DNA from: a virus
Strand: one strand, 5' to 3'
Virus record (IMG/VR): IMGVR_UViG_3300042691_041718
Coordinates: 64,001-128,000 of that record
Length of the DNA: 64,000 nt
The position numbers and the translations under genes were made by a program. The notes below the pieces were generated by a model. That model did not search any database. It was not told where the DNA came from and saw only the letters and a program-made list of their open reading frames with translations. Shown here one piece after another: positions 6,207 through 57,713 of the stretch (positions are counted from its first letter, which is position 1; the number at the start of each line of letters is the position of its first letter).

Positions 6207-6413
6207 GTGTTGATCATCATGAATAAGAGTCAAATTATAGAAGTTAGTTTACAATTCAGAAAAATTATTATAAACTCCAATTATGGTTTGCCTAATAAGT
6301 TTCTAAATATAGATGATGAATATTATTCAGAAACTTTTAAGTTAAAAATACTTTATAAAAGATTTCATAAAATAGAAAAGATATGGAAAAGTGGGAAGAC
6401 GCACAATCAGTAG
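6207..6413 (+). CDS. Small protein with a PolB motif-B-like segment and an RxxKIxxI tail
   Basis: RKIIINSNYG, then KRFHKIEKIW. ATG at 6219 is the likelier start. Confidence 0.55.
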   Translation: MLIIMNKSQIIEVSLQFRKIIINSNYGLPNKFLNIDDEYYSETFKLKILYKRFHKIEKIWKSGKTHNQ

Positions 6414-6736
6414 TTTGTATAAAACCATACTTAAATTATAGAGTTGGTGGTTCTTATAACATAAAAGGTAGAGGAAACTTGACTTTTAATGCTGACCCAG
6501 AAGTTGGTGGTAGAAAAGGTTGGGGTATTTGTATCGAAGATGATTGGTACGGATCACACGATGATAAAGGTAATCTTATAAAAGATTGGTGGAAAAAACC
6601 ATATTCAGAAAGAATTAAGTGGTATTATTTAGATTTAAATGAGTTAAATACTTATTTCATAACTTATGATGAATATTGGGAAACTAAATTGAAAGCGGAT
6701 AGAAGAGAAGATAAACTTAATCAATTAGGTATATGA
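6383..6736 (+). CDS. Hypothetical protein with C-terminal tail RREDKLNQLGI
   Basis: 117 aa ORF; ATGA-coupled to the next gene. Confidence 0.7.
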   Translation: MEKWEDAQSVVCIKPYLNYRVGGSYNIKGRGNLTFNADPEVGGRKGWGICIEDDWYGSHDDKGNLIKDWWKKPYSERIKWYYLDLNELNTYFITYDEYWETKLKADRREDKLNQLGI

Positions 6737-7113
6737 AGTATAAAGATAATAATTTTGTAAACTATCAAGATAAACAAAGAAATGGTAACTTTGATTACTA
6801 TTCAGATAAAAGTGATAGACAAAAGAGGAGAGAATTAGAACATAAATTGTCTATTTTTTATATGGGAAAACTTTCAAATAGAATTGAAAAGTTATGGTGG
6901 AATAATCTTAAAACATCTGATAAAGAAAAAATTTGTAGAGGTTATAATAACCAGTTAGATTATCTTTTACAAGATGAAGGTTATAGGAAATCACTTTGGT
7001 ATAGTCATAAAGTATTTGAGTCTTGGGAAGAATGGTTCGATTATATCAAAGTTGAGTATAAACCAAATAAGTCTTCTTATAGAAATGATAAATTGAAAAT
7101 GTTGGGTATATGA
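6733..7113 (+). CDS. Hypothetical protein with C-terminal tail RNDKLKMLGI
   Basis: 126 aa ORF; ATGA-coupled. Confidence 0.7.
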   Translation: MKYKDNNFVNYQDKQRNGNFDYYSDKSDRQKRRELEHKLSIFYMGKLSNRIEKLWWNNLKTSDKEKICRGYNNQLDYLLQDEGYRKSLWYSHKVFESWEEWFDYIKVEYKPNKSSYRNDKLKMLGI

Positions 7114-7343
7114 AAGTTCCTACTATTGAGGTGTTGGTAATGTCTTTATATAATGATATTTTAGATGCTAAGAAAAAATTAAAAAAATTAGAAAATGATT
7201 CAAGACTTAATATTTATCCAAGTCAGATAGATGTTTATCAAGAAATGAGTGAGTTAAAAAATTTTATTCAAAAAAATGAAGAATTATTAAGTCGATACAG
7301 GACTACAATAAGAGATGAAAAACTTAAACAATTGGGTATATGA
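7110..7343 (+). CDS. Small coiled-coil protein with C-terminal tail RDEKLKQLGI
   Basis: 77 aa ORF; ATGA-coupled. Confidence 0.7.
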   Translation: MKVPTIEVLVMSLYNDILDAKKKLKKLENDSRLNIYPSQIDVYQEMSELKNFIQKNEELLSRYRTTIRDEKLKQLGI

Positions 7344-7744
7344 CAGAAGATGAAGTTTTTGATATTATAAAGGATGTCTATTTTGAAGAAAACTTTGAAA
7401 TAAATAAAGCAAAGTATGCTTTTTTAGGTAAACCTAACTATACTAGTTTTCGTATAAAGAAGTATAATAATAAATTTAAAGGTTTTTATACTCATGTTAG
7501 AATACAAAATAAAGTATTAGGAAATCAAATACTTAATGATCATTGGGTTGTTATTGGATGTAATATTTCCAATGAGTATGAAATTGATTTCGATAGTGTG
7601 TTATCATTACAAATGTTTAAGGATTGGTTTGATGAATTGTTGGAAGCTGAGAAAAAGGTAGATCATTTAAAAAGTCGGTTCAATAAAATGAAAAGAAATT
7701 TTAAATCTGAACTAAGAGATTATCAATTAAAAAAGTTATTATGA
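7340..7744 (+). CDS. Hypothetical protein with C-terminal tail RDYQLKKLL
   Basis: 134 aa ORF; ATGA-coupled. Confidence 0.7.
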   Translation: MTEDEVFDIIKDVYFEENFEINKAKYAFLGKPNYTSFRIKKYNNKFKGFYTHVRIQNKVLGNQILNDHWVVIGCNISNEYEIDFDSVLSLQMFKDWFDELLEAEKKVDHLKSRFNKMKRNFKSELRDYQLKKLL

Positions 7745-8625
7745 AAGATATAAAGAGTTTTTGTAAGTTATTTGATTTGAATGTTCCAAATTTCAATGAA
7801 TTTGATTATTATATCAATCAATATAAAAAATTGTGGAGGTGGAAAAATATTGATGATTTAATAACATTATATGAATCAGCTGAATTAGAGATTGAAGATA
7901 TTTACCAGTTTAAATTGGATAAATCAAATGAGGCTATTGAGTTTCTTAAAAAATCGAGAGCTTATAATGAATTAAATGATGATAATTTAATTACTGATTT
8001 ACCAACCAATAAAAATGTTACTTTATCAGAAGATAAAAAATATTTATCTATCGATTTGAAGATGGCTAATTGGCAGGTTCTTAAAAAGTATGATCCATTC
8101 TTCCTAAATGAATTAGGAGATACTTATTCTGATTTCTTAAATAAGTTTGATATACATCCAATATTTCACAAGTCTAAACATTTCAGACAATACATCTTTG
8201 GTAATATAAATCCAAAAAGACAAGTTAGAGCTCAAAGAGTTATGATTGAAGATGTTATTAATAAATTGAGTGGTTTTGATGGTTTAACATTGGAATTTAT
8301 TAAGTATGATGAGGTTATATTCTCTTATGATGATATAAAAAAATTACAAAAAGAAGTTCTATTAGATATTATTAAAAATGAGTCTTATAATGTTAAAATA
8401 TTCAAAACTAAAATAACAGAAGATTTTAGAATAAATACTTATTTAGACTTTTTTGAAAATGAACTATATAAGGAGTTAACTGGTTGTGATGGTAGAAAAT
8501 ACTTTATTTACTTAAAAAAATACATATTTAATGAACCTATTGATATAAGAGACCTTTATTTTAGATGTGATGGTGACTTAGCAATCTGGGGAGTTGAAAA
8601 CTTAAAAATTGAACTAAATGACTGA
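7741..8625 (+). CDS. Hypothetical protein (possible polymerase palm-like acidic motifs)
   Basis: 294 aa; YLSIDLKMAN and IKYDEVIF. The function is uncertain. Confidence 0.6.
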   Translation: MKDIKSFCKLFDLNVPNFNEFDYYINQYKKLWRWKNIDDLITLYESAELEIEDIYQFKLDKSNEAIEFLKKSRAYNELNDDNLITDLPTNKNVTLSEDKKYLSIDLKMANWQVLKKYDPFFLNELGDTYSDFLNKFDIHPIFHKSKHFRQYIFGNINPKRQVRAQRVMIEDVINKLSGFDGLTLEFIKYDEVIFSYDDIKKLQKEVLLDIIKNESYNVKIFKTKITEDFRINTYLDFFENELYKELTGCDGRKYFIYLKKYIFNEPIDIRDLYFRCDGDLAIWGVENLKIELND

Positions 8626-8887
8626 TTTATTTGTATATGATTTAAATGATAATTTAATTGGTTGTCATAATATTGATTTTGAAATTCTTTCTGGTGAAAA
8701 TCTAACTCAAGCTAAAAATCGTAGCAGAGATTTTATAAATAAAAAATTTGGTATACAAGCCTTTGATAAGGATACAAAAGTAACTATACATAGAAACTTT
8801 GGTGAAGAAAAATTTTCAATTATATTAAAGATTTCAGACAAACAACTAACTAGAGAAATGATACTAACTAATATTTTAAACAAATGA
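8618..8887 (+). CDS. Hypothetical protein with a degenerate tail REMILTNIL
   Basis: 89 aa ORF within the coupled operon. Confidence 0.6.
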   Translation: MTDLFVYDLNDNLIGCHNIDFEILSGENLTQAKNRSRDFINKKFGIQAFDKDTKVTIHRNFGEEKFSIILKISDKQLTREMILTNILNK

Positions 8888-12684: not shown

Positions 12685-12978
12685 ATGTATTTTGTGAAGT
12701 TTGAAAATATAGGAGTCTTTGTTAAAGAGAGTGGTAAACTTGTTAGTTCACCATGGAATCTTAAACATGAAATTTTTCAATTAGAAGAAGGTGAGAATTT
12801 CAAAAAAATGATAAGAAAGAGTCCTTTTGCTAATTGTAAAAGAATAGATTATTTTGATCCAAATAAAAAAGAGGCAATCCCAAGGTATATAATGGATTAC
12901 ATCTTAGACTTGGAAGAAGTGAAGGCTATTATAATTTTAAAAGAGCGAGATAATAAAATAAACCAAATATTAGAGTAA
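12685..12978 (+). CDS. Hypothetical protein with C-terminal tail RDNKINQILE
   Basis: 97 aa; TACTTTTG at 12672..12679 upstream. Confidence 0.65.
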   Translation: MYFVKFENIGVFVKESGKLVSSPWNLKHEIFQLEEGENFKKMIRKSPFANCKRIDYFDPNKKEAIPRYIMDYILDLEEVKAIIILKERDNKINQILE

Positions 12979-13415: not shown

Positions 13416-13919
13416 ATGAATTATGGAACTGAGGAAAGTCCAATAAAGTTATTTAGTATAGAACAAGGAAGAGAATACTTAAATAATTTAAGATGTGAGA
13501 ATGGTGATTATATAATTTACCATCGTTTAGGATCTACTTATATAAATGATAATATATCTGATATATATGAGATTTACACATCATCACACAAATTGGATAA
13601 AATATACATAACTTATGTTGATGAGTGGTTGACTGATTTAAGACCACCGACAGGGTATTTATTTGAAAGTCCATTTCTTTCTGATTTAACGGAGCTATCA
13701 GGAGAGTATATATTTGATGATACAGATTATAATGATGAAGATGGTTATTTAAAACAGTCATTAACTGAGTCAGGTGGGTATAATATGATGGATGATGATT
13801 TTCCACTTGGTGTATTAGATAAATTAATGAAAGAGTTTGTCATTATTGGAAATAAAAGTAAGATAATTGCTGAAATAATTTCTTTTAGAAGAGATAGAAA
13901 ATTAGATGATATATTATAA
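13416..13919 (+). CDS. Hypothetical protein with C-terminal tail RDRKLDDIL
   Basis: 167 aa ORF. Confidence 0.65.
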   Translation: MNYGTEESPIKLFSIEQGREYLNNLRCENGDYIIYHRLGSTYINDNISDIYEIYTSSHKLDKIYITYVDEWLTDLRPPTGYLFESPFLSDLTELSGEYIFDDTDYNDEDGYLKQSLTESGGYNMMDDDFPLGVLDKLMKEFVIIGNKSKIIAEIISFRRDRKLDDIL

Positions 13920-14326
13920 TGTCTTTGAAAAAATATAAAAGTAAATTTGATATAATCGAGAACGATATTGACAAACTTGATATTCGACCATATAATCACT
14001 GTAATGGTCAGTGGTGGTGGGGATTTTATTATGATTGGGATGATGATTATGATGATTATGAGTATGAGTGGGAGTATATTGAATGGGATTATATAAAAAT
14101 ACCGGAAATTGATTGGGGTTATAAAGTTATCAATAAATCATTTCGTAACTGGCGTATCAGTGATCCAAGTGTACCTGGAACTTATGTTGATATGGAAAGT
14201 GTTTATGGTAAATCCGAAATGAGAAATCGTAAGATAGATATGATTTTAGGTTTAAGAGAACCTAATTACCAAACAACTGTAACTCTTGGAGATTTTTTTG
14301 ATAGAATTGATAAACATTCAAATTAA
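13919..14326 (+). CDS. Acidic, Trp/Tyr-rich hypothetical protein with a sub-terminal RNRKIDMIL
   Basis: 135 aa ORF. Confidence 0.6.
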   Translation: MSLKKYKSKFDIIENDIDKLDIRPYNHCNGQWWWGFYYDWDDDYDDYEYEWEYIEWDYIKIPEIDWGYKVINKSFRNWRISDPSVPGTYVDMESVYGKSEMRNRKIDMILGLREPNYQTTVTLGDFFDRIDKHSN

Positions 14327-14680: not shown

Positions 14681-15319
14681 ATGAAATACGCAACATTTAG
14701 ATACTTATACCCGCCTCGTCCAGAGAACGCAATTCCTAGTTCTGAACTTTATTATCATGATAATGGTTCGATGGTTGCTCAACCAAAATTAAATGGTTCA
14801 AACTGTCTTATCTTCACAAATGGTGAAGTTGTTTATAAGATGAATAGACATAATGATAGACTTACTAGATTTGAAATTAAAGATGAAGAAGTACTCAATT
14901 TATATAAAGGTACTGGTGGATGGACTGTATTAAATGGTGAATACTTAAACAAGAATAAACAAGATGAAAACAGAAAATCATTTAATCATAAATTGATTTT
15001 GTTTGATATTTTGGTTAATGATGGTGATTATTTAATTGGTAAAACATTTGAACAGCGAATTAAATTGTTAGATGAAATGTTTGGTCAAAACGAATCAGAA
15101 AAAGAATATCTTTATTCAATTTCAGATAATGTTTATCGTGTTAAATCATATGAAAATAATTTTAGTGTGTTGTTTGATAAACTAACATACAATAACGAAC
15201 TTTTAGAGGGTCTTGTGTTGAAAAGAAAGAATTCTAGATTAGAAATAGGAAACACTCCAAAAAACAATTCACGTAGTCAAATTAAATGTAGAGTGACTAC
15301 TAAAAACTATAAATTTTAA
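14681..15319 (+). CDS. ATP-dependent ligase-type nucleotidyltransferase, adenylation domain only
   Basis: Motif I QPKLNGSN, III LNGEY, IIIa LFDIL, IV EGLVLK, V QIKCR; no OB domain. Confidence 0.75.
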   Translation: MKYATFRYLYPPRPENAIPSSELYYHDNGSMVAQPKLNGSNCLIFTNGEVVYKMNRHNDRLTRFEIKDEEVLNLYKGTGGWTVLNGEYLNKNKQDENRKSFNHKLILFDILVNDGDYLIGKTFEQRIKLLDEMFGQNESEKEYLYSISDNVYRVKSYENNFSVLFDKLTYNNELLEGLVLKRKNSRLEIGNTPKNNSRSQIKCRVTTKNYKF

Positions 15320-16071
15320 TTATTACTTTTTTTATAGTTATCAATTGCCCATAATGGTTGTAGATTTGATAAAGAATTGACTATTGATGGTGGTGTTTCT
15401 TTATCAAATTTACTAACTGGTATTATATGATCAATATGCCATTCACCCCAATTATCCCAAGACATGCCTTCTAAAAATTTACTTTCAATATTATCTCTAA
15501 ATTCTTTCGATGAGTATCCTAATATATCAATAGTACTCTCTGATTTTTTAATATTAAAATAGTATAGTACCCTACGTAGTGAGTTTCTCCAAGCTACTAT
15601 ATGTGGATTTTTACTTGACCAATTATAAATATACTTTCTGTGTTTTTCTTTATGTTCTGGTAGATCTTTAATGGATTCATAGTATTTCTTTTTCCAATTT
15701 CTAATATAATCTTTATTCTCTTCATAGTATCTCCGTTTAGATATTTTTACCTTTTCTGAATTATTCTTTCTATATTTTCTACCAGCATTTGAAATTTTAT
15801 CTCTAAGTTCTTGATCTGTATTATATCTATTCCTTCGTCTTTCATTAATTTCTTCTTTATTTGACTCGTACTTTTCTTTATACTTTTCAAGTAAATCATA
15901 TTTATTTTCTTTATAATAATTATTGAGATATTTTTTCATTTTATCTCTATTTTTAATTCTATATTCTCTTTCACAATCTTTACATTGAGTTCTTAATCCA
16001 TCATTTGATATCTTTAATTTATTAAAGTTTATCAGATCTTTATATTCTCCACATTTTTTACATTTTTTCAT
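15316..16071 (-). mobile_element. HNH homing endonuclease
   Basis: N-terminal CKKC...CKDC, a charged helical repeat, and C-terminal WHIDHIIP...NLQPLWAIDNYKKSN. Confidence 0.9.
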
Positions 16072-18650: not shown

Positions 18651-18677
18651 AAAAGAGACTGAAAGGTCTCTTTTTTT
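18649..18677. terminator. Bidirectional intrinsic terminator
   Basis: AAAAAAGAGACT-GAAA-GGTCTCTTTTTT between convergent genes. Confidence 0.85.
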
Positions 18678-19008
18678 ATTTAAATAGATTTTTCAATCTC
18701 CAATCTCTGACTTCAATTTTAAAGTCCTCAAATGAATTGGTTCTTGATAGAATGTCAACTTTCTCATTTAATTCTTCTATTAGTGATTTTAGTTCTTCAC
18801 TTCTTTCTCTAATACGACCATCATAAACGCAATCAATTCTAGAATCACCTTGTTGGATTGGTACAAACCAAATAGTTACATTTTGATAATTAAACGATTT
18901 TGCTATTTCTGATAATGTCTCCTCTGCTCTTTGTCGAGACATGCCACCAATATTAACATAATAGGTGAATATTGGGTTATCTAAATTTAATTCATTCTGT
19001 TCTAACAT
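18676..19008 (-). CDS. Mini portal-clip-like protein with tail RDWRLKNLF
   Basis: [22 protein letters not shown]...IWFVP resembles a T4 gp20-type portal segment. Confidence 0.6.
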   Translation of the reverse strand: [110 protein letters not shown]

Positions 19009-19967
19009 ATCTTTGATAATAATTCTTTTTTCTTTTCCGAAAACTCTTCATCGGTTAAAACACCGGCTTTGTGTAAATCATCTAATTTCTTAATTAAATC
19101 TAAGATACCATCAATCTCTTTTATTTTATCCCATTCTTTTTTCAACTCAGTTTCATTTACTTTATTTTTCAATGGTTCTTTTTTTATATCAGATGTTGAT
19201 ACTGGTTTAACACTCTCAGGTAATAATTGTAAAATAGTTGATGAAATATGATATGTATCAAAGTCCATATCAATCTCAGAGAACTTTTGTGAAGATGATG
19301 ATCCCTTTTCAACTCTACCGGTTTCAAATGAAGTGTTAATCTTATGACCAGAAGATAAAGAACCAATACAATTTGATAAATCCACACCAGTTGTATATGT
19401 TGCATTGGTAGAATTATATGAAGTAGTTGTTGTACTACCACTTGTGTTTGTACCAATAATATTATTTGTGTAATAACCACCAGTTGTATTCCCACTTAAT
19501 GTTCCACTTCCGTAAGTTATCCAAGTGTTTGGGTATGTTGGATATGTAGGATAGTATCTTTCAATTATAACTGTATTAAATCTATCTCTCCAATTTTTAA
19601 TAGAAACAACAGATTCTTTATAAAAGAAAACTTCTAATTTACCGTTATTTTGAGTAGCGTTTATCGATTCTAATGAAGCGTCAACTTCATAAGTTGAAAA
19701 AATAAATTTCTTTTTATCATCAATAAAACAATCAAGATAAAATCTTTGACCTGGTTTTAAAACCAATCCAGTTTTTGAAATTGAATTACCATTTAACTTA
19801 ATATCAGCTAAGACACAGTCTGTAAGTGGATTATATAATTCGATTTGGAATTCTTCGGAATCTTTTAGATAAACTTTTCCGTTTTTAATAGATTTTCTAC
19901 CTCTATCAGTAGAATTTACGACCCAAGCACTTGGCTTAGAAACGTGGTTGTTTGCAATTTTTGCCAT
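19002..19967 (-). CDS. Hypothetical protein with a C-terminal SHOCT domain
   Basis: C-terminus LIKKLDDLHKAGVLTDEEFSEKKKELLSKI; Thr/Ser-rich linker. Confidence 0.7.
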   Translation of the reverse strand: MAKIANNHVSKPSAWVVNSTDRGRKSIKNGKVYLKDSEEFQIELYNPLTDCVLADIKLNGNSISKTGLVLKPGQRFYLDCFIDDKKKFIFSTYEVDASLESINATQNNGKLEVFFYKESVVSIKNWRDRFNTVIIERYYPTYPTYPNTWITYGSGTLSGNTTGGYYTNNIIGTNTSGSTTTTSYNSTNATYTTGVDLSNCIGSLSSGHKINTSFETGRVEKGSSSSQKFSEIDMDFDTYHISSTILQLLPESVKPVSTSDIKKEPLKNKVNETELKKEWDKIKEIDGILDLIKKLDDLHKAGVLTDEEFSEKKKELLSKIC

Positions 19968-35390: not shown

Positions 35391-35437
35391 ATGTCGGTTT
35401 TATATTTTAATATATACATTAAAATATAAAACTAAAT

Positions 35438-36580: not shown

Positions 36581-36597
36581 AAATAATTAATAAAAAA

Positions 36598-39533: not shown

Positions 39534-39674
39534 CTATATATTAAAAATCTTTCTTAACTTTCTCTTTCTTATACTAACCTTTTCAAAGTTTAATATTTTC
39601 ATTTGATACTCAAAAAACGCACTAGTCATATAGCTTCTACCAACTTGTCTTGATTTTCCCAATATTACATTCAT
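39534..39674 (-). CDS. 46-aa ORF (not in the supplied track): terminase Walker-A-like segment plus RxxKLxxI tail
   Basis: Hand translation MNVILGKSRQVGRSYMTSAFFEYQMKILNFEKVSIRKRKLRKIFNI; ATGA-coupled to the upstream gene. Confidence 0.55.
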   Translation of the reverse strand: MNVILGKSRQVGRSYMTSAFFEYQMKILNFEKVSIRKRKLRKIFNI

Positions 39675-39979
39675 AAACCCAACTCAATTAATTTTATCTC
39701 TCTGATTAAAGCCGTTTTTGTATAATGATTATAATCTAAATTATATTCAGATTTTAAGTAATCTTTAACACATTCGGTATATTTACTATAAACAAAGTCT
39801 TGATAGTTATCATCACACCCCATTACTTCTTTGTAAAACATTCTTTCGAGAATTCTTTCTCTATCTCTGAGTATGGCACCTTCTTCATATCTTTGAGATT
39901 TAATAGCTTTCATCTTTTCATCTCTTAAATCTAAAATATCAATAAGTAGTTGTAACAATTTTACTTTTTCCATATCCAT
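39671..39979 (-). CDS. UVR-domain protein with tail REIKLIELGL
   Basis: KMKAIKSQRYEEGAILRDRERIL fits the UvrB/UvrC/ClpC UVR coiled-coil motif. Confidence 0.6.
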   Translation of the reverse strand: MDMEKVKLLQLLIDILDLRDEKMKAIKSQRYEEGAILRDRERILERMFYKEVMGCDDNYQDFVYSKYTECVKDYLKSEYNLDYNHYTKTALIREIKLIELGL

Positions 39980-40131
39980 TCAATAATCTTTTTTCTTCTC
40001 TGAGAAATTCTCACTAAATACATCTTTTTAAGCATTACCTCAGTCTCCTCAACCAGTTTTTTCATTTTTTCATTATGAAAATCTTTTCTTCTTTCTGATA
40101 AATAAGTATCCACATCCTTAACCTTAAACAT
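39961..40131 (-). CDS. 56-aa ORF (not in the supplied track) with tail RRKKIIEWI
   Basis: Hand translation MFKVKDVDTYLSERRKDFHNEKMKKLVEETEVMLKKMYLVRISQRRKKIIEWIWKK; fills the gap and overlaps the cobB stop. Confidence 0.45.
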   Translation of the reverse strand: MFKVKDVDTYLSERRKDFHNEKMKKLVEETEVMLKKMYLVRISQRRKKIIEWIWKK

Positions 40132-40843
40132 TTTTTAAAATATCAACAATTTTTTTCATACCAACTGTTGCTGGTTCTTTAATATGTGTATAATTAATCT
40201 TACTCAAACCATAAGAATCTGACCAAACAATCATTTCATCAGCAGGATCAACATAATATATCTTACAAGTATCCTTCACCAATGTTGGTAGTAAATTAGC
40301 AGGAGCTACTTGCATTGATGTTCCAACAATAATACAAATATCACACTTTTGAGCAGCTTCTTCTGCCTTTGATAATAAATTATAGTTCAAACTTTCACCA
40401 AACCAAACAACAGCTGGTCTTAATTGAGAACCTTTTGAACACTTATCACCAATATTAATATCACCTTCCCAATCAAACGTTTCATCTGATCCAGGGAAAG
40501 AAGATTTAGCTTTTGATAATTCACCGTGTAAATGAATTACATTAGTAGAACCTGCTCTTTCGTGTAGATTATCAACATTTTGAGTAACTAAAGTTACATT
40601 ATAATCTTTTTCTAACTCAGCAATTATTTTATGAGCATCATTTGGATAGACATCTTTCATTTGAGCGCGACGTTGGTTATAAAAATCCAAAACACGATTT
40701 TTATCTTTTCTCCAACCAGTTAAGGTTGCTACATCTTCAATTTTGAAGTTATACCAAAGACCATCAGAATCACGAAAGGTTTCAACTCCCGACTCTTTAG
40801 AAACTCCAGCACCAGTAAATATTAATATTTTTTTCATAGACAT
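40124..40843 (-). CDS. cobB: Sir2/CobB NAD-dependent deacylase
   Basis: FTGAGVSKESG, FRDSDGLW, VTQNVDNLHERAG, HLHG, LRPAVVWFGE, VGTS; TATCTTTG at 40854..40861. Confidence 0.93.
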   Translation of the reverse strand: MSMKKILIFTGAGVSKESGVETFRDSDGLWYNFKIEDVATLTGWRKDKNRVLDFYNQRRAQMKDVYPNDAHKIIAELEKDYNVTLVTQNVDNLHERAGSTNVIHLHGELSKAKSSFPGSDETFDWEGDINIGDKCSKGSQLRPAVVWFGESLNYNLLSKAEEAAQKCDICIIVGTSMQVAPANLLPTLVKDTCKIYYVDPADEMIVWSDSYGLSKINYTHIKEPATVGMKKIVDILKNV

Positions 40844-40924
40844 AAATAATATACAAAGATAATAAAAATAAGTTTATTAGAAAGTATTTAAATTTTAATA
40901 TATAATAAAAAATATATTAGTTGA

Positions 40925-43900
40925 ATGCCATTACCTTCACAAAACATCATTAGAAATAAACCATATTTAGTTTCAGCTGTGGATTATCAGTTAGGTACTT
41001 TTGTTGATCCATTGCAATATAATTTAGCTTATTTTGATAATTTTCAAATATTAGAGGAAAGAACGAATGGTTACGCAAGTCCTCGTTTGGTAAACTGGGT
41101 AGAACCATATACTGTCAATGATATAAATAAAACATTATTTTATACAGAGGTTAATTCAAATATACAAGTTGGTGATAGAGTATTTATAATAAATGGATAT
41201 TATGATAGTGATTTATTGATTAAGGATGATAAGTATAAATCTGGTAGAGATGGTTATATAGTTCTTTATGTTGATAAATGTAAGATAGTTCTTGATATAG
41301 ATTACACTGGTGTTTTACCATTCAATGATACTGAAAAAAAGGATGACTTTGTAAAAGTTTGGAAAATTTCAACAAGAGAACAATTCTTACATGTTAATAA
41401 ACAAATATCATCAAGAGGAGGTCAACTTAACTATAAGTTTGATAAGTATCAAAATAATATGATATATGCTGATTCTAATGACGTTTTTTATCAACCAGTT
41501 TATAACGAAGAGTATACCGCAGGTACAATATCTAATATAGCTGGATATGGTGTTAGTTTAGGTTTAACAGGTGCTCCAGGATTTTTTGTTAGAAATGGTA
41601 GTGGTTATTGGATTAATATATCAAAAGAGTTATACTTTTATGGTTCTTTTTCAGCAGCTCTTGGAACTTATTCAAATAATAGACTAATGGTTATGAGTGG
41701 TGATTTCACTCATAAAGGAACCGATTTCAAAGAAGGAAATATTTATGAATGGGTTACTGGACCTACAAATTCATATTGGGGAGTTGATAAACTTTTCTCA
41801 AAACCAATAATTAGTAAGTCTAACTTTAGAAGTGGTGATTTTTTTGGAACTTTTAATAATGGTATTTATGGAATACAGGAAAAGAGAATACAGTGGAAAG
41901 GTATAAAATCTAAGTGGAATGGTGGTACTTTATTAAATACAATTTGGGAAAATGGTGATTTAAATTCAAAAATAACAATTGCTGGTCAAAACTATACAAC
42001 AACACTAGATAGTTCTGGTGATCCAATTCAAAAAAGTAATACTAATAATAATGGTGGTAAAGGGTTTAACTTTATTATAGATTCTAGTATATTAAAAGCT
42101 AATATTGAAAATGGTACAATAATAAATGCTAAATTAGGTGGTACAAATACTAAGAAAGTTTTAAAAAATCACTTAAATTCTGCTACACAAAGTTTTGATA
42201 TATCTATTCAAAAAGGATACTTTGAAGATGGACAATTTAATTCATTATTAATTGACAATTCAACTTTAATTAACTCTAAGTTAGTTGATAGTAAAATAAC
42301 AAATAGTAGAATTGTAAATTCCCAAGTTATTGATAGTGTAGTCAAAGACTCTACTTATATTTCGGAAGATTCTATTAAGATAAAAGCTTACGATGAGTGG
42401 AATGTTTCAGAATATAGATACACTAATCTAGCAAATAACCCAACCGGATCAAGTACTTATAGTATAATAAAACTATCTAGTCCATTTAGCTTACAAAATT
42501 CAAGAACAACACACAAATTATTCAAATTTTATATTGATGAAAAAGACTACAAAAAACTTAAATTAGATGATTATTTCTATTTAAAGGGTATAAACATAAA
42601 TAATAATTCAAAAATTCCAATAAATTTCTTTGATAAAAAATTTAAAATTGGAACTTGGGTTGATTTTAACGATGAATATACAGAGTCTTTTATAAACGAT
42701 GATTATACATATGAAAGAGATAATACAGTGGCTAATTTCTATAAAAGAGGATTTGAGTATAATGCTTATTTATCAACACCTGAAGAAAATAGTTATGTTT
42801 TAAACAGTTTAACCGCATCTGTTGATTTACAAATGATGATAAGTGCTACTTTATCATCAACTGCTAGTATAGTTGCTCAATCAACTGGAATAATCAAAAC
42901 AAATACAAACTCAAATTACTATTCAGTTGATATTTTAGTATCTATACAAGATGTTATAAATAGAGATGTGGATTCAACAGAATTTAATTTTAACTATAAT
43001 TCTAATCCTGGTACACAATCAACATATATAGGTAACTTAATTGATATATCAAAAGCATTTATAATAAATTCAAACTTTGATAGTGGTATTTTAGAAACAT
43101 CTGATTGGAATAGTGGTTATTATATAAACTATAACAACGATGTTAATATATCATCATTAACAGGAAGTGGTACTTATAGAATATCTTTAAATACCGTTAA
43201 TAGTACTTTAATTGTTACTAATACACAATATGTATCTGAAAAAAATAAAGAATTTAGTTTTAAAATTGGTGATGTTGTTTATTTAAACTCAGTTGATTAT
43301 ATAAATGGTGGTGTAGTTAAAAGAATACCTGATTCATACGAAGTATTATCAATTGATGTTAACAAATTAACACTTAAAGAAATTGGTACTAATATATTAT
43401 CCGGATTAACAGCTGGTGGATATTTTGAAACAAATAATTCAAGAAACAGATATAATTATCTAAGCAAAGTTAAATTCTATAAGAGTAAAATAAAATCTGG
43501 GCTATTTAAAAGAGGATATATGAATAGTTCATTGATAAAAAATGATAATTATGATTCATCCGATAAAGATTTTTTCAATCTTGAGAAGATTAGAAGTTTG
43601 ATTATAAGTGATACAATTTTTAGTAATAATAATAATATATTATCATCAGCAACTTATTTAAATTCATTTTTTATCGGAGGTAATGATGTTTGGCAAGATG
43701 GTATAATACAAAACTCATTTTTAAATAACTTTGGTTTCAATAAAGGTGTTATTAAAGAATCTCAATGGTATGATGGTGTATTTACTAATGGAACTTTTTA
43801 CAACTCAAGATCATTTGATGGTAATGGTACTATTGATAAGAAATATTATTATGATAATAGAATAAAATCATATCACATAGATGGTGTTGTAACAGCAACT

Positions 43901-46378
43901 GTTTCAAACTTTAGATACTCTTGGGTCAAAGGAGAATTTAAAGATGGAATATTCTTTAAGAGTGATTGGGAGGATGGTGTATTTAAGAATGGTATATTTA
44001 ATTATTCTAAGTTCTACAAAGGTACGTTTAGTAACGGACAAATTGGTGAGCCAAAATCAGCGGCTGAATCAACAGTTATTTATAATGGAGATATTCTTTA
44101 TGCAACTGTTAATAATGCCACACTATATGCTAAAAGTCCAAATTATTTAGGAGCAACTGAAAGTGGTGATATTTATAATATAAACTGGTATGATGGTATA
44201 TTTAATAATGGTGTTTTTGGTTCTTATTACGAAAGATTATATATTTATGTTGGTGGATCAACATACTCTAATCATGTTGTCCCATTAAACGCAACTGCAA
44301 ATCCAAATGGTAGTAATGGTATGTCTATAAACCAAACTAATTTTAGTAATATTTGGAATGATCAAAGAACACAGGGATTTTTAGTATCAACTCAAAGTTT
44401 ATCAAGTACAGTATATGATGTTATTGTAAATCCTGAACTTCCTTTTGATATAGAATTAAAAGTTAAAATCAATCATACTTATATAGGTGATATATTGATA
44501 AATTTAAAATCCCCAAATGGTAAAATTATAAATGTTAAAGACTATAATATAGGAAGTGATAATGACTTTAAATCCAATGACTCGATTGTTTTTACTACAA
44601 ATGATTCAAATCCAATATTAACATCAGTCTTACCACAATACTACAATAATGATAACCCACCTTATTTGAAATTTAGAATGAGTAAATCACTTGGTATTGG
44701 TACTTTTGGAACATATAGCTTCCTATCCAATACAATTAACTCAACTGAATTATTAAATTTTGATAATACATTTAATGGAAATTGGGAATTGATAATCATT
44801 GATAATTCACTATATGATATTGGATACTTATTTGAGTGGGAATTAACATTTAAATACAATACTCTTGATTATACAATAGATAGAAATAACTATGCAACTT
44901 GGTATAATGGTACATTTAATGGAGGACAATTTACAAATTATGCTAAGTGGAAAAATGGTACATTTAATGGTGGTAGATTTATATCTACTTATGGATGTAG
45001 CCAAAGTGGTTTATTTTATAATAACTCAGAAGACAAGTTAACTTACTCTTGGGAGAATGGTACATTTAACGATGGTGAATTTGGTAACTCATCAACTGGA
45101 GATAACTCAACATGGTATTACGGTATATTTAATGGTGGTGACTTCAAAGGTAAAATTTGGAATAATGGATTATTCACTGGTGGTAACTTCAAAGGTAGCT
45201 CAACCTTCTCAGCAATTGGTAATCTAGATATAAATAATTATCAGAATTCAAATGCTTCTAAATTCGTAGATTCATATACGCAAAGTTTTTATGGATTGTG
45301 GGTAGATGGAATTGCTACAAATAATAAATGGAGATATTTATCAGAAAAAGCTTTTTATGTTAGAAATAAAATTCCAAAAGTTTATAACTCAATAAATTTT
45401 GATAAAGTTTTGTGGTTATCTGGTACATTTAGTAGTGATAACGGTACGTTTAAAAATAGTGTTTGGTTAACCGGGACATTTAATAAAGGTACATTTCAAT
45501 ATAGTTCTTTTAATCCATATGTAATTAGATCTAATAATGATGAATATCCGCTAAAGTTAAATACTACGAATAGTGATTATTCATTTACTCCTAACTTTAA
45601 TAGTACTAATGCTACTAATAATTCAATACCAGATAAATCAAATTGGGTAACTGGTGATTTTATAGATAGTGATTTTTATATGTCGAGATGGTTAAATGGT
45701 AATTTCATTAGTGGTACTGCATGGGGTATGATTTTTTATAATGGTGTTTCTAATTTTATGAATGCTTATAATGTTATTTGGGAAGGAGGTACTTGGAAAA
45801 ATGGTAACTGGTATGGATCAAATTTTGACTATGTTGGTTATGTAAACAATGAATTTACTTATAATATATTAAAACGTGGATTGAGAGATAATGGTAATTC
45901 TGTTGCCACACAACCATATGACTACGTAAATGGAACATATTCTTTGGTTCCACCACCAGACGGTCAATCTTATGGTCGAAATGAAGTACATATTTGGAAT
46001 TTATTTAAAAATTCATCAAAGGTAATTAATCAAATAAGTGATGGTGGATCTAGTGATATTAGTTTTGATATAACAGTTGAAAATACATCATCTTATAATT
46101 TTGGAACATATTATGATCCAAACGAAGGAACATCATATACATTCAGACCACCAAGACCAGAAACAAATATAACACCTTGGGTAATTACCGACGAAAGTTC
46201 TGGCGATGGTTCATTCAATCCAGAAACATGGAATGAAAATTGGAGTACAGATTTTAGTGTATTTGGAGTTAATAATAACAATAATACGGCTATTCCAAAT
46301 GCTAACTGGGAATTCACAAGTTTTTCGGAACCATCTTCAGACCCATTTTCAAATTGGACAAATATTAGTTATGATTAA
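40925..46378 (+). CDS. Giant putative virion protein
   Basis: 1817 aa; pentapeptide tracts (I-x-N-S-x and G-x-F/W-x-x), one P-domain-like module; ends WTNISYD. Confidence 0.65.
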   Translation: MPLPSQNIIRNKPYLVSAVDYQLGTFVDPLQYNLAYFDNFQILEERTNGYASPRLVNWVEPYTVNDINKTLFYTEVNSNIQVGDRVFIINGYYDSDLLIKDDKYKSGRDGYIVLYVDKCKIVLDIDYTGVLPFNDTEKKDDFVKVWKISTREQFLHVNKQISSRGGQLNYKFDKYQNNMIYADSNDVFYQPVYNEEYTAGTISNIAGYGVSLGLTGAPGFFVRNGSGYWINISKELYFYGSFSAALGTYSNNRLMVMSGDFTHKGTDFKEGNIYEWVTGPTNSYWGVDKLFSKPIISKSNFRSGDFFGTFNNGIYGIQEKRIQWKGIKSKWNGGTLLNTIWENGDLNSKITIAGQNYTTTLDSSGDPIQKSNTNNNGGKGFNFIIDSSILKANIENGTIINAKLGGTNTKKVLKNHLNSATQSFDISIQKGYFEDGQFNSLLIDNSTLINSKLVDSKITNSRIVNSQVIDSVVKDSTYISEDSIKIKAYDEWNVSEYRYTNLANNPTGSSTYSIIKLSSPFSLQNSRTTHKLFKFYIDEKDYKKLKLDDYFYLKGININNNSKIPINFFDKKFKIGTWVDFNDEYTESFINDDYTYERDNTVANFYKRGFEYNAYLSTPEENSYVLNSLTASVDLQMMISATLSSTASIVAQSTGIIKTNTNSNYYSVDILVSIQDVINRDVDSTEFNFNYNSNPGTQSTYIGNLIDISKAFIINSNFDSGILETSDWNSGYYINYNNDVNISSLTGSGTYRISLNTVNSTLIVTNTQYVSEKNKEFSFKIGDVVYLNSVDYINGGVVKRIPDSYEVLSIDVNKLTLKEIGTNILSGLTAGGYFETNNSRNRYNYLSKVKFYKSKIKSGLFKRGYMNSSLIKNDNYDSSDKDFFNLEKIRSLIISDTIFSNNNNILSSATYLNSFFIGGNDVWQDGIIQNSFLNNFGFNKGVIKESQWYDGVFTNGTFYNSRSFDGNGTIDKKYYYDNRIKSYHIDGVVTATVSNFRYSWVKGEFKDGIFFKSDWEDGVFKNGIFNYSKFYKGTFSNGQIGEPKSAAESTVIYNGDILYATVNNATLYAKSPNYLGATESGDIYNINWYDGIFNNGVFGSYYERLYIYVGGSTYSNHVVPLNATANPNGSNGMSINQTNFSNIWNDQRTQGFLVSTQSLSSTVYDVIVNPELPFDIELKVKINHTYIGDILINLKSPNGKIINVKDYNIGSDNDFKSNDSIVFTTNDSNPILTSVLPQYYNNDNPPYLKFRMSKSLGIGTFGTYSFLSNTINSTELLNFDNTFNGNWELIIIDNSLYDIGYLFEWELTFKYNTLDYTIDRNNYATWYNGTFNGGQFTNYAKWKNGTFNGGRFISTYGCSQSGLFYNNSEDKLTYSWENGTFNDGEFGNSSTGDNSTWYYGIFNGGDFKGKIWNNGLFTGGNFKGSSTFSAIGNLDINNYQNSNASKFVDSYTQSFYGLWVDGIATNNKWRYLSEKAFYVRNKIPKVYNSINFDKVLWLSGTFSSDNGTFKNSVWLTGTFNKGTFQYSSFNPYVIRSNNDEYPLKLNTTNSDYSFTPNFNSTNATNNSIPDKSNWVTGDFIDSDFYMSRWLNGNFISGTAWGMIFYNGVSNFMNAYNVIWEGGTWKNGNWYGSNFDYVGYVNNEFTYNILKRGLRDNGNSVATQPYDYVNGTYSLVPPPDGQSYGRNEVHIWNLFKNSSKVINQISDGGSSDISFDITVENTSSYNFGTYYDPNEGTSYTFRPPRPETNITPWVITDESSGDGSFNPETWNENWSTDFSVFGVNNNNNTAIPNANWEFTSFSEPSSDPFSNWTNISYD

Positions 46379-50954: not shown

Positions 50955-50985
50955 AAAAAAGAGTTACTGTTGTAACTCTTTTTTT
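50955..50985. terminator. Bidirectional intrinsic terminator
   Basis: AAAAAAGAGTTAC-TGTT-GTAACTCTTTTTT. Confidence 0.85.
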
Positions 50986-51677
50986 ATTAAATATAAGTGA
51001 CCAACATTACCGTTTTTAGCATGATGACCCATCGAATCTATTCTTGTTTTATCACCTTTTAGTTTTAAACCAGTTAGTTTTTGTTTACCTAAAATTCTTT
51101 TTTCACCGTTACAAGTACTACAATGATTTAATCCAACTTGACCCTTTCCATTACAAAAAGAACATTCTTGGTCCATATATTTACCAGTACCTTCACAAAA
51201 GTCACAACCATCATCAGCATCAAAAACTTTTAAAATATTACCATCGTTATCACGAATAATAATTTTTGATGAGAAGTCTTTACCAGTACCATCACAAGAT
51301 TTACACTTTACCCATCTTTCAAATTCGACTGTTCCATCAAAATCATCATCAACTTGTATTATAATATCATTTACTTCATTTTTTTTAAATTTTTCTCTAG
51401 TTGATTTAACATCATCATATTCTAAATCAATATTTATATTAAATAACTCATAGTATTCATTATAGTTATTTCCATATTTAGATTTTAAATCATAGTCACT
51501 TCGATTCTCACCACATAAAACATCATAAGCCTCGGTCATTTCGGAGAAAATATCAGCATCTCCATTCTTATCAGGATGGTGTTTAAAACTCAACTTATAA
51601 TAAGATTTTTTTATTGTTTTTTCATCTGCATTTTTAGGAACACCTAAAATAGCATAATAATTTTTTGATAAATTCAT
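50964..51677 (-). CDS. dnaJ: DnaJ-family co-chaperone (J domain plus CxxCxGxG zinc finger, shortened)
   Basis: NYYAILGV, HHPDK, then CKSCDGTG, CDFCEGTG, CSFCNGKG and CSTCNGE. Confidence 0.88.
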   Translation of the reverse strand: MNLSKNYYAILGVPKNADEKTIKKSYYKLSFKHHPDKNGDADIFSEMTEAYDVLCGENRSDYDLKSKYGNNYNEYYELFNINIDLEYDDVKSTREKFKKNEVNDIIIQVDDDFDGTVEFERWVKCKSCDGTGKDFSSKIIIRDNDGNILKVFDADDGCDFCEGTGKYMDQECSFCNGKGQVGLNHCSTCNGEKRILGKQKLTGLKLKGDKTRIDSMGHHAKNGNVGHLYLIKKELQQ

Positions 51678-51866: not shown

Positions 51867-52151
51867 TTATTCTTTATTTTTTAATAAATTATCTAATCTG
51901 TGATTTCTCATAAATGCTGTTCTTTCAGTTTCAGTCATATTATTAAAATCTTCAAAAGATAAATCTATACCCATTAGTTTCAAACCGAACTCTATATATT
52001 CCTGAATTGAAGTTGTCTTATCAACCCAAGAATAACCTGTAATAGTGTTGCTATTACCAATTACGATATTATTATACCCACCTACAACACTATTAGTTCC
52101 AATACCATAACTAGATGTACTTGTACTACAACTTCCCAAAATATTTGCCAT
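51867..52151 (-). CDS. Hypothetical protein with tail RNHRLDNLL
   Basis: 94 aa; the Gly/Asn-rich N-half (NSVVGGYNNIVIGNSN) resembles beta-roll fibre repeats. Confidence 0.6.
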   Translation of the reverse strand: MANILGSCSTSTSSYGIGTNSVVGGYNNIVIGNSNTITGYSWVDKTTSIQEYIEFGLKLMGIDLSFEDFNNMTETERTAFMRNHRLDNLLKNKE

Positions 52152-55653: not shown

Positions 55654-55915
55654 ATAAAGAATAATTATTTTCTTTTATATATTCAATATATTCCTTTCCC
55701 CCATCCATTATTTCCAAAAAAGTACAAAAATCATCTATATTCAAATTATCTATTGAAAATTTTATCTCAATCTCAGTTTTATCAACAACAGATTTTCCAT
55801 TTCCGTTGTTTCCAACTAGTAAGATAAGTTCTCCTTTTTCTGTATTTAATTTTACGACTTGTTCATTATTTCCGAATGATTTAAAACCTCTAATTCCAAT
55901 TTCGCTAATCAGCAT
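55616..55915 (-). CDS. N-terminal 41 aa of the SbcC/gp46 ATPase plus a 58-aa N-intein
   Basis: IGIRGFKSFGN and LLVGNNGNGK (Walker A), then SVVDKTEIEIK, which fits intein block A (S/C-x4-T-x-I); the N-intein starts at 55792. Confidence 0.85.
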   Translation of the reverse strand: MLISEIGIRGFKSFGNNEQVVKLNTEKGELILLVGNNGNGKSVVDKTEIEIKFSIDNLNIDDFCTFLEIMDGGKEYIEYIKENNYSLYEQYIKKQKSIR

Positions 55916-55947
55916 AATATAAAAATAATTTTTAAATTATACTAATT

Positions 55948-56322
55948 TTATTGAAATAAGTTTGAGTTAGTTGCTGTTATTATTTCCTCCGGTTTTACTT
56001 CATCTAAAACAATTTTACCTAAGTCTTCTTCGTAATATGAAACATATTTTTCAAAGTCAACTTCATCCAATCTTTTAGATATTTCTTCATATGGAATTAA
56101 TTTTTTTAAAATACTTTCTAATAAGTCTTTATATCCATCCCATAATTCTATATTCATGCCAATTACATCTTCAACTGTTTCATCAGTCGTTAAGACAATA
56201 TTTTTATCTGAATAAAAAATGGTACCTTCGTAAAATTTATTATCTATATTTAGACTAATTAATACCAAGACACCATTTTCATATTTACCCATATAATCTA
56301 CTATATCGGCTTTAATCTCCAT
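55948..56322 (-). CDS. Hypothetical protein
   Basis: 124 aa acidic ORF. Confidence 0.6.
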   Translation of the reverse strand: MEIKADIVDYMGKYENGVLVLISLNIDNKFYEGTIFYSDKNIVLTTDETVEDVIGMNIELWDGYKDLLESILKKLIPYEEISKRLDEVDFEKYVSYYEEDLGKIVLDEVKPEEIITATNSNLFQ

Positions 56323-56548
56323 TTAAAATATCATTTATTTTTTCATCTCTTTTAATCTGATCATTATTTAATAAATAACCAGAATTAATTAAAGTCCACT
56401 TAATGGACTCAGCCATTTCATTTCTACCATCACCATAAGCATATAACATATCTTTATAGTAGGTGTGAATTGCCTGTCTTTCTTCTTTATCTTCTAATTT
56501 GTGTATTTTATTTAAATCTAAAAAATATTTTCCAATTTTATCATTCAT
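56312..56548 (-). CDS. Hypothetical protein with tail RDEKINDIL
   Basis: 78 aa ORF. Confidence 0.65.
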   Translation of the reverse strand: MNDKIGKYFLDLNKIHKLEDKEERQAIHTYYKDMLYAYGDGRNEMAESIKWTLINSGYLLNNDQIKRDEKINDILNGD

Positions 56549-56556
56549 TATAATTA

Positions 56557-56829
56557 TTACAATTTTTCATCAATAATAAATTCAATCTTTTTAAATCTAT
56601 TATCTAAGTCTGTGAAGATAATTGATATTTTATCAACATCTTTAAACTCTCTCGCTTCACCAGTAAATTCGTTTACCATTACATCTTTTTTGTAAACTAC
56701 ATCAATACCTGGCTCTTCACCTAAAAATCTTCTCATATCTTCCTTGATTTGAGATAATTTCCAATCATCTACTTTAAAATTTATTTTAGAAATATAATCT
56801 CTAATTGCGATTTCTTTCATTGAGTTCAT
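56557..56829 (-). CDS. Hypothetical protein
   Basis: 90 aa ORF. Confidence 0.6.
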   Translation of the reverse strand: MNSMKEIAIRDYISKINFKVDDWKLSQIKEDMRRFLGEEPGIDVVYKKDVMVNEFTGEAREFKDVDKISIIFTDLDNRFKKIEFIIDEKL

Positions 56830-56845
56830 ACAAATTATTTATTTT

Positions 56846-57181
56846 TTAAAATCTACCACCTCTATCTATGAAGTAAGTATTATTTTTTTCGATAATCTCT
56901 AAATTATTATGTACTATTTGACAATAAGTTTCAAAATTATCAATATCTTCTTTTTCTAAATCAAACCACTCCCCACTTACTTTACAAGCTTTAAACTTCT
57001 TATGAAGATGTGCTTCTATTTTAGTCCCCCACTTTGAATGAAATGACTTTTCTATTTTTAGGTCAGAAGCATTACCAGTTTTGAATTCTTTCATTCTTTC
57101 ATTTATACTTCTTTTTGTGTAACCTATTTTATAAAGTTTTTTACCTCCAAATTCTGATGAGATTAAATATACATTTATCAT
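56846..57181 (-). CDS. T5orf172/MUG113-type GIY-YIG-like protein
   Basis: VYLI...YKIGYT...ERMKEFKTGN...IEAHLHKKF...GEWF. Confidence 0.8.
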   Translation of the reverse strand: MINVYLISSEFGGKKLYKIGYTKRSINERMKEFKTGNASDLKIEKSFHSKWGTKIEAHLHKKFKACKVSGEWFDLEKEDIDNFETYCQIVHNNLEIIEKNNTYFIDRGGRF

Positions 57182-57214
57182 AATGTATATATAATCACCT
57201 CATGTCTCTATTTT

Positions 57215-57478
57215 TTATTTTTTAAATATATCTTCTTTATAAGAAGAGATTAGTTTACTTATCTCTTTTTGAGCCTTATTTTTATCTAACTCACCTATTG
57301 GAATATAAAAAGTCTTACGATATGGAATCGGATATGTCGGTGATTTCTTACCATACAATTTAGCAATTTTATTTCTTCTTTCGAATGTTTGTAACATACC
57401 AGTTATATCCTCCCATACATTTTTCTTCTTTTTCTTAACAAAGAGACTTTTTACAAACTCCACTATTTTATTTATCAT
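57215..57478 (-). CDS. Mini protein with a portal-like segment and an internal RRNKIAKL
   Basis: RKTFYIPIGELDKNKAQKEISKLISSYKED. Confidence 0.6.
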   Translation of the reverse strand: MINKIVEFVKSLFVKKKKKNVWEDITGMLQTFERRNKIAKLYGKKSPTYPIPYRKTFYIPIGELDKNKAQKEISKLISSYKEDIFKK

Positions 57479-57713
57479 AAATTTTTTTAATTTTTACTCT
57501 TCTTTTATCATGTCTTGGGTTGTATGGAAACCAATAGTTATTGAAAGATATAAAATGACCTGATAAGTCAACCTCTCCAGTTTTTTCATCAATCTTTATA
57601 GAAAATTTTTTATAATTACTTTTTCTTCTTACCAAGTGTTTTAACACTTCTTTTAACTTCTTCATCATCAGTATCGTCTCCGTATTTAAAATCCAAGTGA
57701 AATAGAGTACCAA
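57468..57713 (-). CDS. Mini protein with a portal-like segment and tail RRVKIKKI
   Basis: IKIDEKTGEVDLSGHFISFNNYWFP. The start is uncertain (GTG 57713 or ATG near 57668). Confidence 0.5.
   Translation of the reverse strand: MVLYFTWILNTETILMMKKLKEVLKHLVRRKSNYKKFSIKIDEKTGEVDLSGHFISFNNYWFPYNPRHDKRRVKIKKIYDK

Follow-up and report, generated by a model that had tools for sequence, protein, structure and literature searches.

A short C-terminal helix shared by unrelated small proteins in a sub-clade of huge freshwater phages

Many small proteins encoded in a 64,000-nucleotide stretch of viral DNA (the window; bases 64001-128000 of the linear 186,465 bp IMG/VR record IMGVR_UViG_3300042691_041718, labelled G000 as a whole) end in the same tail of ten residues. 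The tail is found far beyond chance, is selected as a protein, is modelled as a helix, is carried as a module by different bodies and is confined to a sub-clade of huge freshwater phages. Our tentative reading is of a portable helix for docking to one putative partner, carried by small proteins that evolve fast and are mostly early.

Results and discussion

Enrichment and anatomy of the tail

An earlier note on the window listed about 15-18 tails of the form R-[DENR]-x-[KR]-[IL]-x-x-[IL]-[LGFWY] and proposed a genome-wide comparison of C-termini with shuffled sequences. All of its peptides were found at the ends of the open reading frames (ORFs) that it named, and the comparison gave strong enrichment. 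Among the 240 genes of G000, called with a simple codon-score caller, its pattern matched 17 times within seven residues of the C-terminus and six times internally, compared with 0.015 terminal and 0.54 internal matches expected from residue-shuffled proteomes. The other reading frames of G000 serve as a stricter, composition-matched control for this proteome rich in lysine, isoleucine and leucine. A tight pattern, R-[DEN]-x-[KRQ]-[IL]-x-x-[IL]-[LG], ends 17 of 238 called genes compared with none of 901 other open frames of at least 40 amino acids. With a position-specific scoring matrix (PSSM) trained only on the related genome G001, 31 segments of G000 reached the cut-off of 9 bits compared with 1.6 in shuffles, and 23 of these lay within nine residues of the C-terminus. 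Chance is effectively excluded, and the set of tagged proteins is larger than the earlier note saw.

The consensus is hydrophobic-R-[D/E]-x-[K/R]-[L/I]-x-x-[L/I]-[G/L]-x, mostly ending one residue before the stop codon. The motif ends exactly one residue from the C-terminus in 75 of 117 copies and zero to two residues from it in 97, and is preceded by a weak pattern with phenylalanine at -7, glutamate at -2 and a hydrophobic residue at -1. The core has two flavours, ...L-G-[ILV]-stop, a helix with a glycine cap, and ...[LI]-L-polar, in proportions that differ between genomes.

Selection on the peptide

The conserved arginine is encoded by five different codons in G001, the two leucine/isoleucine positions by nine each and the glycine by three. 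Since codon choice at the conserved residues is free, selection acts on the peptide. This effectively excludes the alternative that the peptide merely translates a conserved nucleic-acid element at gene ends, be it a promoter, a site of recombination or a structured RNA. The tail does sit at gene junctions, and ATA is the last codon in 77% of the genes ending in GI. On the other hand, synonymous variation is free at every conserved residue, leucine and isoleucine interchange, the pattern ends none of the other open frames counted above and the tail persists in homologues whose protein identity is as low as 46-50%.

An ATGA overlap with the next gene is found for 43% of the genes with the ...LGI tail and for 9% of untagged small genes, and TGA is the stop codon in 62% of the former compared with 21% of the latter. 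If the comparison is limited to small genes that have a neighbour on the same strand, the odds ratio of ATGA coupling is 4-5 (p 0.015 and 3e-7). The preference for ATA-TGA is explained by this overlap, in which the final ATA builds the ATG of the next gene. Together with the near-fixed distance from motif to stop, and with the little use that the host phylum makes of Shine-Dalgarno pairing, these figures would suit a role in cis, with the last nascent residues tuning termination or re-initiation on the overlapping downstream gene. Such a role is nevertheless improbable. No downstream gene that could be coupled exists for 29 of the 90 tagged genes of G001 or for 19 of the 74 LGI-form genes in five genomes, tails of the LL form show ATGA overlaps in only 15%, and 34 genes that are uncoupled to a downstream gene retain G-[I/L/V] while their codon choice is free. 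Conserved internal copies also exist, and in the family of 18676..19008 (positions written in this way are those of the window, as in Table 1) the motif is followed by 0-9 variable residues.

Structure and conservation

AlphaFold (AF2) models were made for two proteins of unrelated families, 6383..6736 and 18676..19008, from alignments of 20 and 30 homologues and with a predicted local distance difference test (pLDDT) score of 81 and 80. The tail is modelled as helix in both. It ends a helix of about 20 residues (95-114, pLDDT about 85) on a beta barrel-like body in the first, and lies in the second helix of a hairpin (93-108) on a beta-alpha-beta-beta body in the other. When both models were compared with the PDB by Foldseek nothing matched at E <=0.001, a protein atlas search returned unnamed viral clusters only, and a profile search with 84 tails against all PDB chain sequences revealed no relative (E 0.68).

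The tail persists in distant homologues. Among 19 database homologues of 6383..6736 it is retained down to 50% identity, with a four-residue indel in the linker, and among 80 homologues of 18676..19008 on contigs of up to 629 kb the string FEDFKIxIRDWRL is retained down to 46% identity. Between genomes the tail is conserved above the bodies, with 61% identity compared with 40% in 29 homologous tagged pairs.

Diversity of the tagged proteins

The bodies appear unrelated when judged by sequence, in agreement with the earlier note. The 117 tagged bodies, of 37-253 amino acids, fall into 102 BLAST clusters, and iterated hidden Markov model (HMM) searching recruits almost nothing further. When such a search was started from one body it found only the orthologue, one distant tagged protein and an untagged protein of 287 amino acids in the tail-less genome G005, which contains a homologue of the body domain. 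Pfam and PHROGs gave no informative match for 30 tagged proteins from two genomes. The bodies have ordinary isoelectric points and no excess of transmembrane-like segments or cysteine motifs over other small proteins; transmembrane-like segments are absent in G000 and occur in 8% of those in G001, equal to untagged small proteins. It also holds that no recognisable enzyme or giant protein is tagged: the longest tagged protein has 193 amino acids in G000 and 253 in the five tail-bearing genomes.

Internal copies of the motif are followed by acidic linkers and resemble tagged units fused to a downstream part. A protein of 181 amino acids in G001 (315824-316369, minus strand) has one internal and one terminal copy, and its second half has a homologue in a stand-alone tagged gene of 99 amino acids, so that it is, from the sequence, an apparent fusion of two tagged units. 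A Rosetta-stone search of the domains downstream of internal copies found one conserved family only, in which the motif precedes a domain of about 165 amino acids (G000 45365-46135, G001 324603-325157 and G033 89039-89755, all on the minus strand). By eye this domain ends in a DGYHR-like motif of the ParB/Srx type, and it has no Pfam match. Longer fused forms of the 18676..19008 family were searched for and none was found.

Tagged genes cluster in arrays, with 37 adjacent pairs compared with 16 expected in G001 and 7 compared with 2.9 in G000. This would be the outcome if one ancestral small gene had been duplicated in tandem and had diverged very fast, leaving the tail as a recognisable remnant that implies no shared reader. 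The longer ends shared within sub-families, such as WxYPIxEYL...RExKLKELGI or FITLxEWR, and the genome-specific dominant flavour of the tail are consistent with such a descent. It is still quite an unlikely explanation in view of the range of body lengths and the number of clusters, the different folds of the two AF2 models and the body domain that lacks the tail in a larger protein of a tail-less phage. Moreover, selective retention of the helix alone would still need a shared function.

Distribution among phages and cells

The closest relatives of G000 in GenBank are the uncultured phages LR745206 and LR756502 (635 and 642 kb). The record itself has a CheckV completeness of 69% and a G+C content of about 27%. 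Further relatives were located with the phage ClpC-like protein as bait, and six were retrieved whole: G001 (344 kb, 91% complete), G002, G003, G004 (complete, 217 kb), G005 and G033. For the nearest described phages, published work points to hosts in the Bacteroidota. The largest Mahaphage genomes have Bacteroidetes as predicted hosts (Al-Shayeb et al. 2020, PMC7162821), and a freshwater lineage described in 2025 has T4-like core genes, a ClpA-like ATPase, PhoH, DnaK/DnaJ and predicted Flavobacteriia hosts (PMC12619734), the same hallmarks as the present lineage. Neither paper mentions a shared protein ending, and no description of the tail was found in the literature by motif strings, in papers on Mahaphages and moraphages or by general terms.

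When counted with a loose regular expression, tagged genes number 27 of 240 in G000, 90 of 501 in G001, 30 of 245 in G003, 21 of 197 in G033 and 12 of 243 in G002. These five tail-bearing genomes thus have 12-90 tagged genes each, or 5-18% of their genes, whereas more distant phages of similar composition have none of 318 (G004) and one of 202 (G005). At the DNA level, a pattern for the ...LGI form was found only in the five records with a ClpC-like protein at least 80% identical. About 30 records whose ClpC-like protein is at 52-55% identity lacked it, and reversed-pattern controls gave no match. The tail is therefore confined to a sub-clade of huge freshwater phages. A DNA search for RExKLKELGI-stop matched six IMG/VR contigs and gave a single match, about as many as chance would give, in 596 Gb of genomes of bacteria and archaea. 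Host mimicry was accordingly rejected; the tail is not a copy of a host protein ending.

Promoter classes and timing

A survey of intergenic 8-mers in G000, G001, G003 and G033 revealed two enriched elements: AATATATA in 164 of 609 upstream regions (25-fold), mostly before large genes, and TATATTTG in 71 of 609 (14-fold), mostly before small genes. They are likely to represent two promoter classes. The latter resembles TAnnTTTG, the Bacteroidetes-type -7 element. The ratio of TATATTTG to AATATATA is 58:40 upstream of tagged genes and 157:240 upstream of untagged small genes (odds ratio 2.2, p 6e-4), and this preference suggests that tagged genes are expressed early by the host polymerase. The full Bacteroidetes-type promoter pattern showed no genome-wide enrichment (23 compared with about 22 expected), and only the -7 box proved informative.

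An extracytoplasmic function (ECF)-type sigma factor lies among tagged genes in G000 (170086-171035, plus strand) and G001 (14784-16025, plus strand). The gene directly after it encodes a tagged protein of 87 amino acids in G000 and a second, divergent ClpP-like protein in G001.

Tagged genes in the window

The copies in the window are listed in Table 1. The tails of the earlier note are real, but its list puts together copies of the core motif and of a basic/aromatic variant, [RK]-x-x-K-[IL]-x-x-[IL]-[FWY], that lies below the PSSM cut-off. Ten of its 15 terminal copies pass the PSSM, three (RFHKIEKIW, RKRKLRKIF and RRVKIKKIY) are variants, RRKKIIEWI fits neither pattern and REMILTNIL is weak. 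Two of its three internal copies also pass (13919..14326 and 57616..58008), while the one in 57215..57478 is uncertain because it lies upstream of the called start. The variant is enriched by itself in the whole of G000, with four terminal matches in called genes compared with 0.08 expected. Two of the four, RFHKIEKIW and RKRKLRKIF, are in the window, and RRVKIKKIY came from the scan of all ORFs only. The variant tail is also present in LR745206.

Table 1. Copies of the C-terminal tail and of its variant in the window
Position	Strand	Length (amino acids)	Motif and position	PSSM (bits)	Remarks
6383..6736	+	117	REDKLNQLG-I, 6704-6733	26.3	
6733..7113	+	126	RNDKLKMLG-I, 7081-7110	18.4	No Pfam match; ATGA overlap with both flanking genes
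7110..7343	+	77 (or 67)	RDEKLKQLG-I, 7311-7340	22.5	
7340..7744	+	134	RDYQLKKLL, 7715-7741	20.7	Stop directly after motif; no Pfam or PHROG match
8618..8887	+	89	REMILTNIL-NK, 8852-8878	<9	Weak; loosest regular expression only
12685..12978	+	97	RDNKINQIL-E, 12946-12972	16.7	Homologue in G001 (342916-343203) tagged too
13416..13919	+	167	RDRKLDDIL, 13890-13916	15.5	Stop directly after motif; homologue in G001 (313366-313872)
13919..14326	+	135	RNRKIDMIL, 14222-14248	17.8	Internal, 25 residues from end
18676..19008	-	110	RDWRLKNLF-K, 18682-18708	11.5	
39671..39979	-	102	REIKLIELG-L, 39677-39703	20.7	
51867..52151	-	94	RNHRLDNLL-KNKE, 51882-51908	11.8	
56312..56548	-	78	RDEKINDIL-NGD, 56324-56350	16.3	
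57616..58002	-	128	RDRIIESLI, 57772-57798	13.9	Internal
6207..6413	+	64-68	RFHKIEKIW, 6360-6386, then 8 residues		Variant; mini-gene; syntenic small ORF in LR745206 with KRKSKIKNIW tail
39534..39674	-	46	RKRKLRKIF-NI, 39543-39569		Variant; mini-gene
39961..40131	-	56	RRKKIIEWI-WKK, 39973-39999		Weak; mini-gene; no PSSM or variant-pattern match, variant-like by eye
57468..57713	-	66-81	RRVKIKKIY-DK, 57477-57503		Variant; ORF overlapping its neighbour, omitted from gene call

The bodies of two of the mini-genes carry motifs typical of essential enzymes. The body of 6207..6413 contains K...NS.YG, the motif B of family-B polymerases, and that of 39534..39674 contains SRQVGRS, which resembles a terminase Walker A motif with lysine replaced by arginine. 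In a search of seven proteomes the only further matches to these patterns were in G004, to its true polymerase and its true terminase. Pfam Gp23 is matched weakly (E 0.0055) by a third mini-ORF, G000 26727-26888. Among other genes, a PhoH-like ATPase (window 23408-25273, minus strand) and a flavodoxin/FMN-reductase-like protein (G000 40517-42433, minus strand) are each split by an intein with a LAGLIDADG endonuclease, and a protein of 321 amino acids (window 19002-19967, minus strand) has a C-terminal SHOCT domain (Pfam E 4.7e-8).

A proposed common reader and its rivals

The earlier note had proposed an amphipathic helix that acts as a docking, localisation or degradation signal for one shared partner. 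The helix, the selection at the protein level and the unrelated bodies stand, while the single partner is something that we infer, as the most economical explanation. In the proposed mechanism the tail, a portable C-terminal amphipathic helix under protein-level selection, is the mark of a large group of small accessory proteins that turn over fast, with differing bodies and probably different jobs. The shared helix would dock all of these bodies onto one common reader, and the group might then be handled together, by being delivered, held or removed.

The proteostasis proteins of the phage are our favoured candidates for this reader. The ClpC-like ATPase of G000 (35399-37588, minus strand) has 729 amino acids, two AAA+ domains, a UVR middle domain, a ClpP-type VGF loop and a lysine-rich C-terminal extension that is seen only in the tail-bearing clade. 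ClpP is present in G001 and G002, the relatives carrying one or two ClpP genes, and DnaK (628-636 amino acids) in G001, G003 and G033. A full type-I DnaJ (G000 6106-7176, plus strand) has tagged genes on both sides, and a second J-domain protein of 237 amino acids is encoded in the window (50964..51677, minus strand). This set is attractive as a reader because the tagged protein 39671..39979 copies the middle domain of the ClpC-like protein: its residues 15-44 are 57% identical over 30 amino acids to residues 304-333 of the UVR/middle domain (E 4e-6), and its N-terminal part has a weak Pfam match to UVR. Judged by this resemblance, 39671..39979 could be a regulator or competitor of the ClpC-like machine. 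That the reader is the ClpC-like/ClpP/DnaK/DnaJ set, with the tail as a degron or an adaptor tether, is still doubtful. Just as speculative is the more specific version in which the tail addresses proteins to a proteolysis system run by the phage, with the helix recognised by ClpP and the ClpC-like protein that lacks an N-domain. Proteolysis of this kind might clear phage early proteins on schedule, or tagged adaptors might drag bound host targets into the protease.

Two other proteins of G000 have C-terminal UVR motifs, 58335-58655 and 155366-155752 (both minus strand; 106 and 128 amino acids; Pfam E 2.5e-10 and 2.4e-5). The tagged protein G000 37629-37976, encoded beside the ClpC-like gene, is homologous to the latter, and its tail aligns with the first UVR helix of that protein.

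Several findings weigh against a single docking partner, and in particular against a proteolytic one. A strongly helical, charged motif is unlike the classical unstructured Clp degrons and unlike DnaK client sites, and the phage ClpC-like protein has no Clp_N domain, which is the usual adaptor-taking domain. The roughly 30 records with the more divergent ClpC-like proteins carry no LGI-form tail even though some have ClpP, and G005 has both a ClpC-like protein and DnaJ with essentially no tail. ClpC-like protein, ClpP and DnaJ are all distributed more broadly than the tail, and co-occurrence with them was rejected as a pointer to the reader. A phylogenetic profile gave 27 G001 families that both tail-less genomes lack and that at least three of the other four tail-bearing genomes share. 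Among them are two large structural-looking proteins (745 and 709 amino acids in G000) and no obvious peptide-binding protein, in a contrast that amounts to a single clade split. The difference in tail flavour between genomes fits co-evolution with a reader and descent by local duplication equally well.

Within the two modelled families the tail is conserved about as the body is (0.79 compared with 0.76, and 0.70 compared with 0.68), and the AF2 confidence of the tail is similar to that of the body. In those two families it could accordingly be a helix that belongs to the fold itself. More generally, the tail might be a self-contained helix that caps or stabilises small domains, or that dimerises, and that has been reused on any body with no common reader. 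The modelled position of the tail, either ending a helix of 20 residues or forming the second helix of a hairpin, would agree with this, and so would the sequence RExKLKELGI, which with its i/i+4 salt-bridge pairs and its glycine and hydrophobic cap is typical of a stable short helix. However, a helix that packs against its own body should co-vary with it, while over 100 unrelated bodies carry the same ten residues. Tagged ORFs at the short end of the range (37-57 amino acids) are too small for a folded body, and tails that pair with each other would cross-associate 30-90 different proteins in one cell. A purely structural helix is for these reasons unlikely, and the portable docking helix is preferred.

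Comparison with known systems

SspB has a peptide that binds ClpX, and ssrA and MuA-type signals are read at the C-terminus; these are tethers and degrons of Clp proteases. The present tail is like them in being a short C-terminal peptide that is joined by a variable linker to a body with another job, and the known ones are read by an AAA+ unfoldase. The context is also similar, with a ClpC-like protein with a ClpP-type loop in G000 and ClpP in relatives, but both occur in tail-less relatives too. The tail differs in sequence from LAA, RRKKAI or LRVVK and has the form of a charged helix, not of an extended peptide, and the phage unfoldase differs from ClpX, ClpA and ClpC by the missing N-domain.

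The clamp-binding tails of T4 gp43, gp33 and gp55 and the PIP-box likewise place one C-terminal motif on unrelated proteins, and those known are read by one hub. The spacing D-x-K-L-x-x-L-L resembles Q-x-x-L-x-x-F-F. The column frequencies of the 117 tails, however, include neither the glutamine nor the aromatic pair of the clamp-type motifs (Q-x-x-[ILM]-x-x-[FY]-[FY], L-D-F-L-F). The carriers are 30-90 orphan proteins rather than replication and late-transcription factors: ligase, ribonucleotide reductase, sigma factor, ClpC-like protein and DnaJ are untagged, as is everything longer than 253 amino acids, polymerase included. No clamp or PolB gene was found in the 186 kb record.

The C-terminal MIM1 helices of ESCRT-III, (D/E)xxLxxRLxxL(K/R), are read by the MIT domain of the AAA+ ATPase Vps4. 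The phage tail may be compared with these as an amphipathic C-terminal helix with a core of the [R/K]-L-x-x-L-[K/R] type that is carried by several proteins. Its register is off by one residue and the MIM1 system is eukaryotic and archaeal, so the likeness is one of analogy only.

The UVR motif (PF02151) also resembles the tail, with phenylalanine at -7 and a hydrophobic residue at -1 followed by R-[D/E], as in F-E-x-A-A-x-L-R-D. The hydrophobic register is shifted by one residue after R-D. G000 has three UVR-bearing proteins as well as the tagged protein that copies the UVR segment of the ClpC-like ATPase. That the tail is a UVR motif is not supported, since it gave no Pfam match at E <=0.1 and an hhalign comparison with the UVR/middle-domain profile gave P 0.07 and a probability of 0.8%.

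Poxviruses have in the PRANC/F-box-like module of their ankyrin-repeat proteins a similar viral repertoire of variable, target-binding bodies with one conserved C-terminal module. PRANC folds as a domain of some 30 residues and has F-box homology, a known reader (Skp1) and a degradation machine, while the present motif has 10 residues. Sorting signals such as LPXTG, PEP-CTERM and the C-terminal domain of the type IX secretion system, which combine a secretion signal with either a hydrophobic membrane span or a folded terminal domain of about 80 amino acids, do not describe a tail of 10 charged and amphipathic residues on bodies with no transmembrane-like excess.

Conclusions

Huge phages have hundreds of orphan genes that are otherwise hard to group. 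A ten-residue ending sorts 5-18% of the genes in this sub-clade into one functional class, which is probably early and host-directed. If there is one reader, it would give a handle on about 100 proteins at once and could reveal a viral route by which many effectors pass through one machine. If the tail is a label for proteolysis, it would be a viral programmable system for targeted degradation with 30-90 interchangeable heads. A short portable tag of this kind might also be useful as a tool. With or without a reader, the motif is a practical annotation marker for these genomes, and it adds to the cases in which phages label unrelated sets of proteins with a common end.

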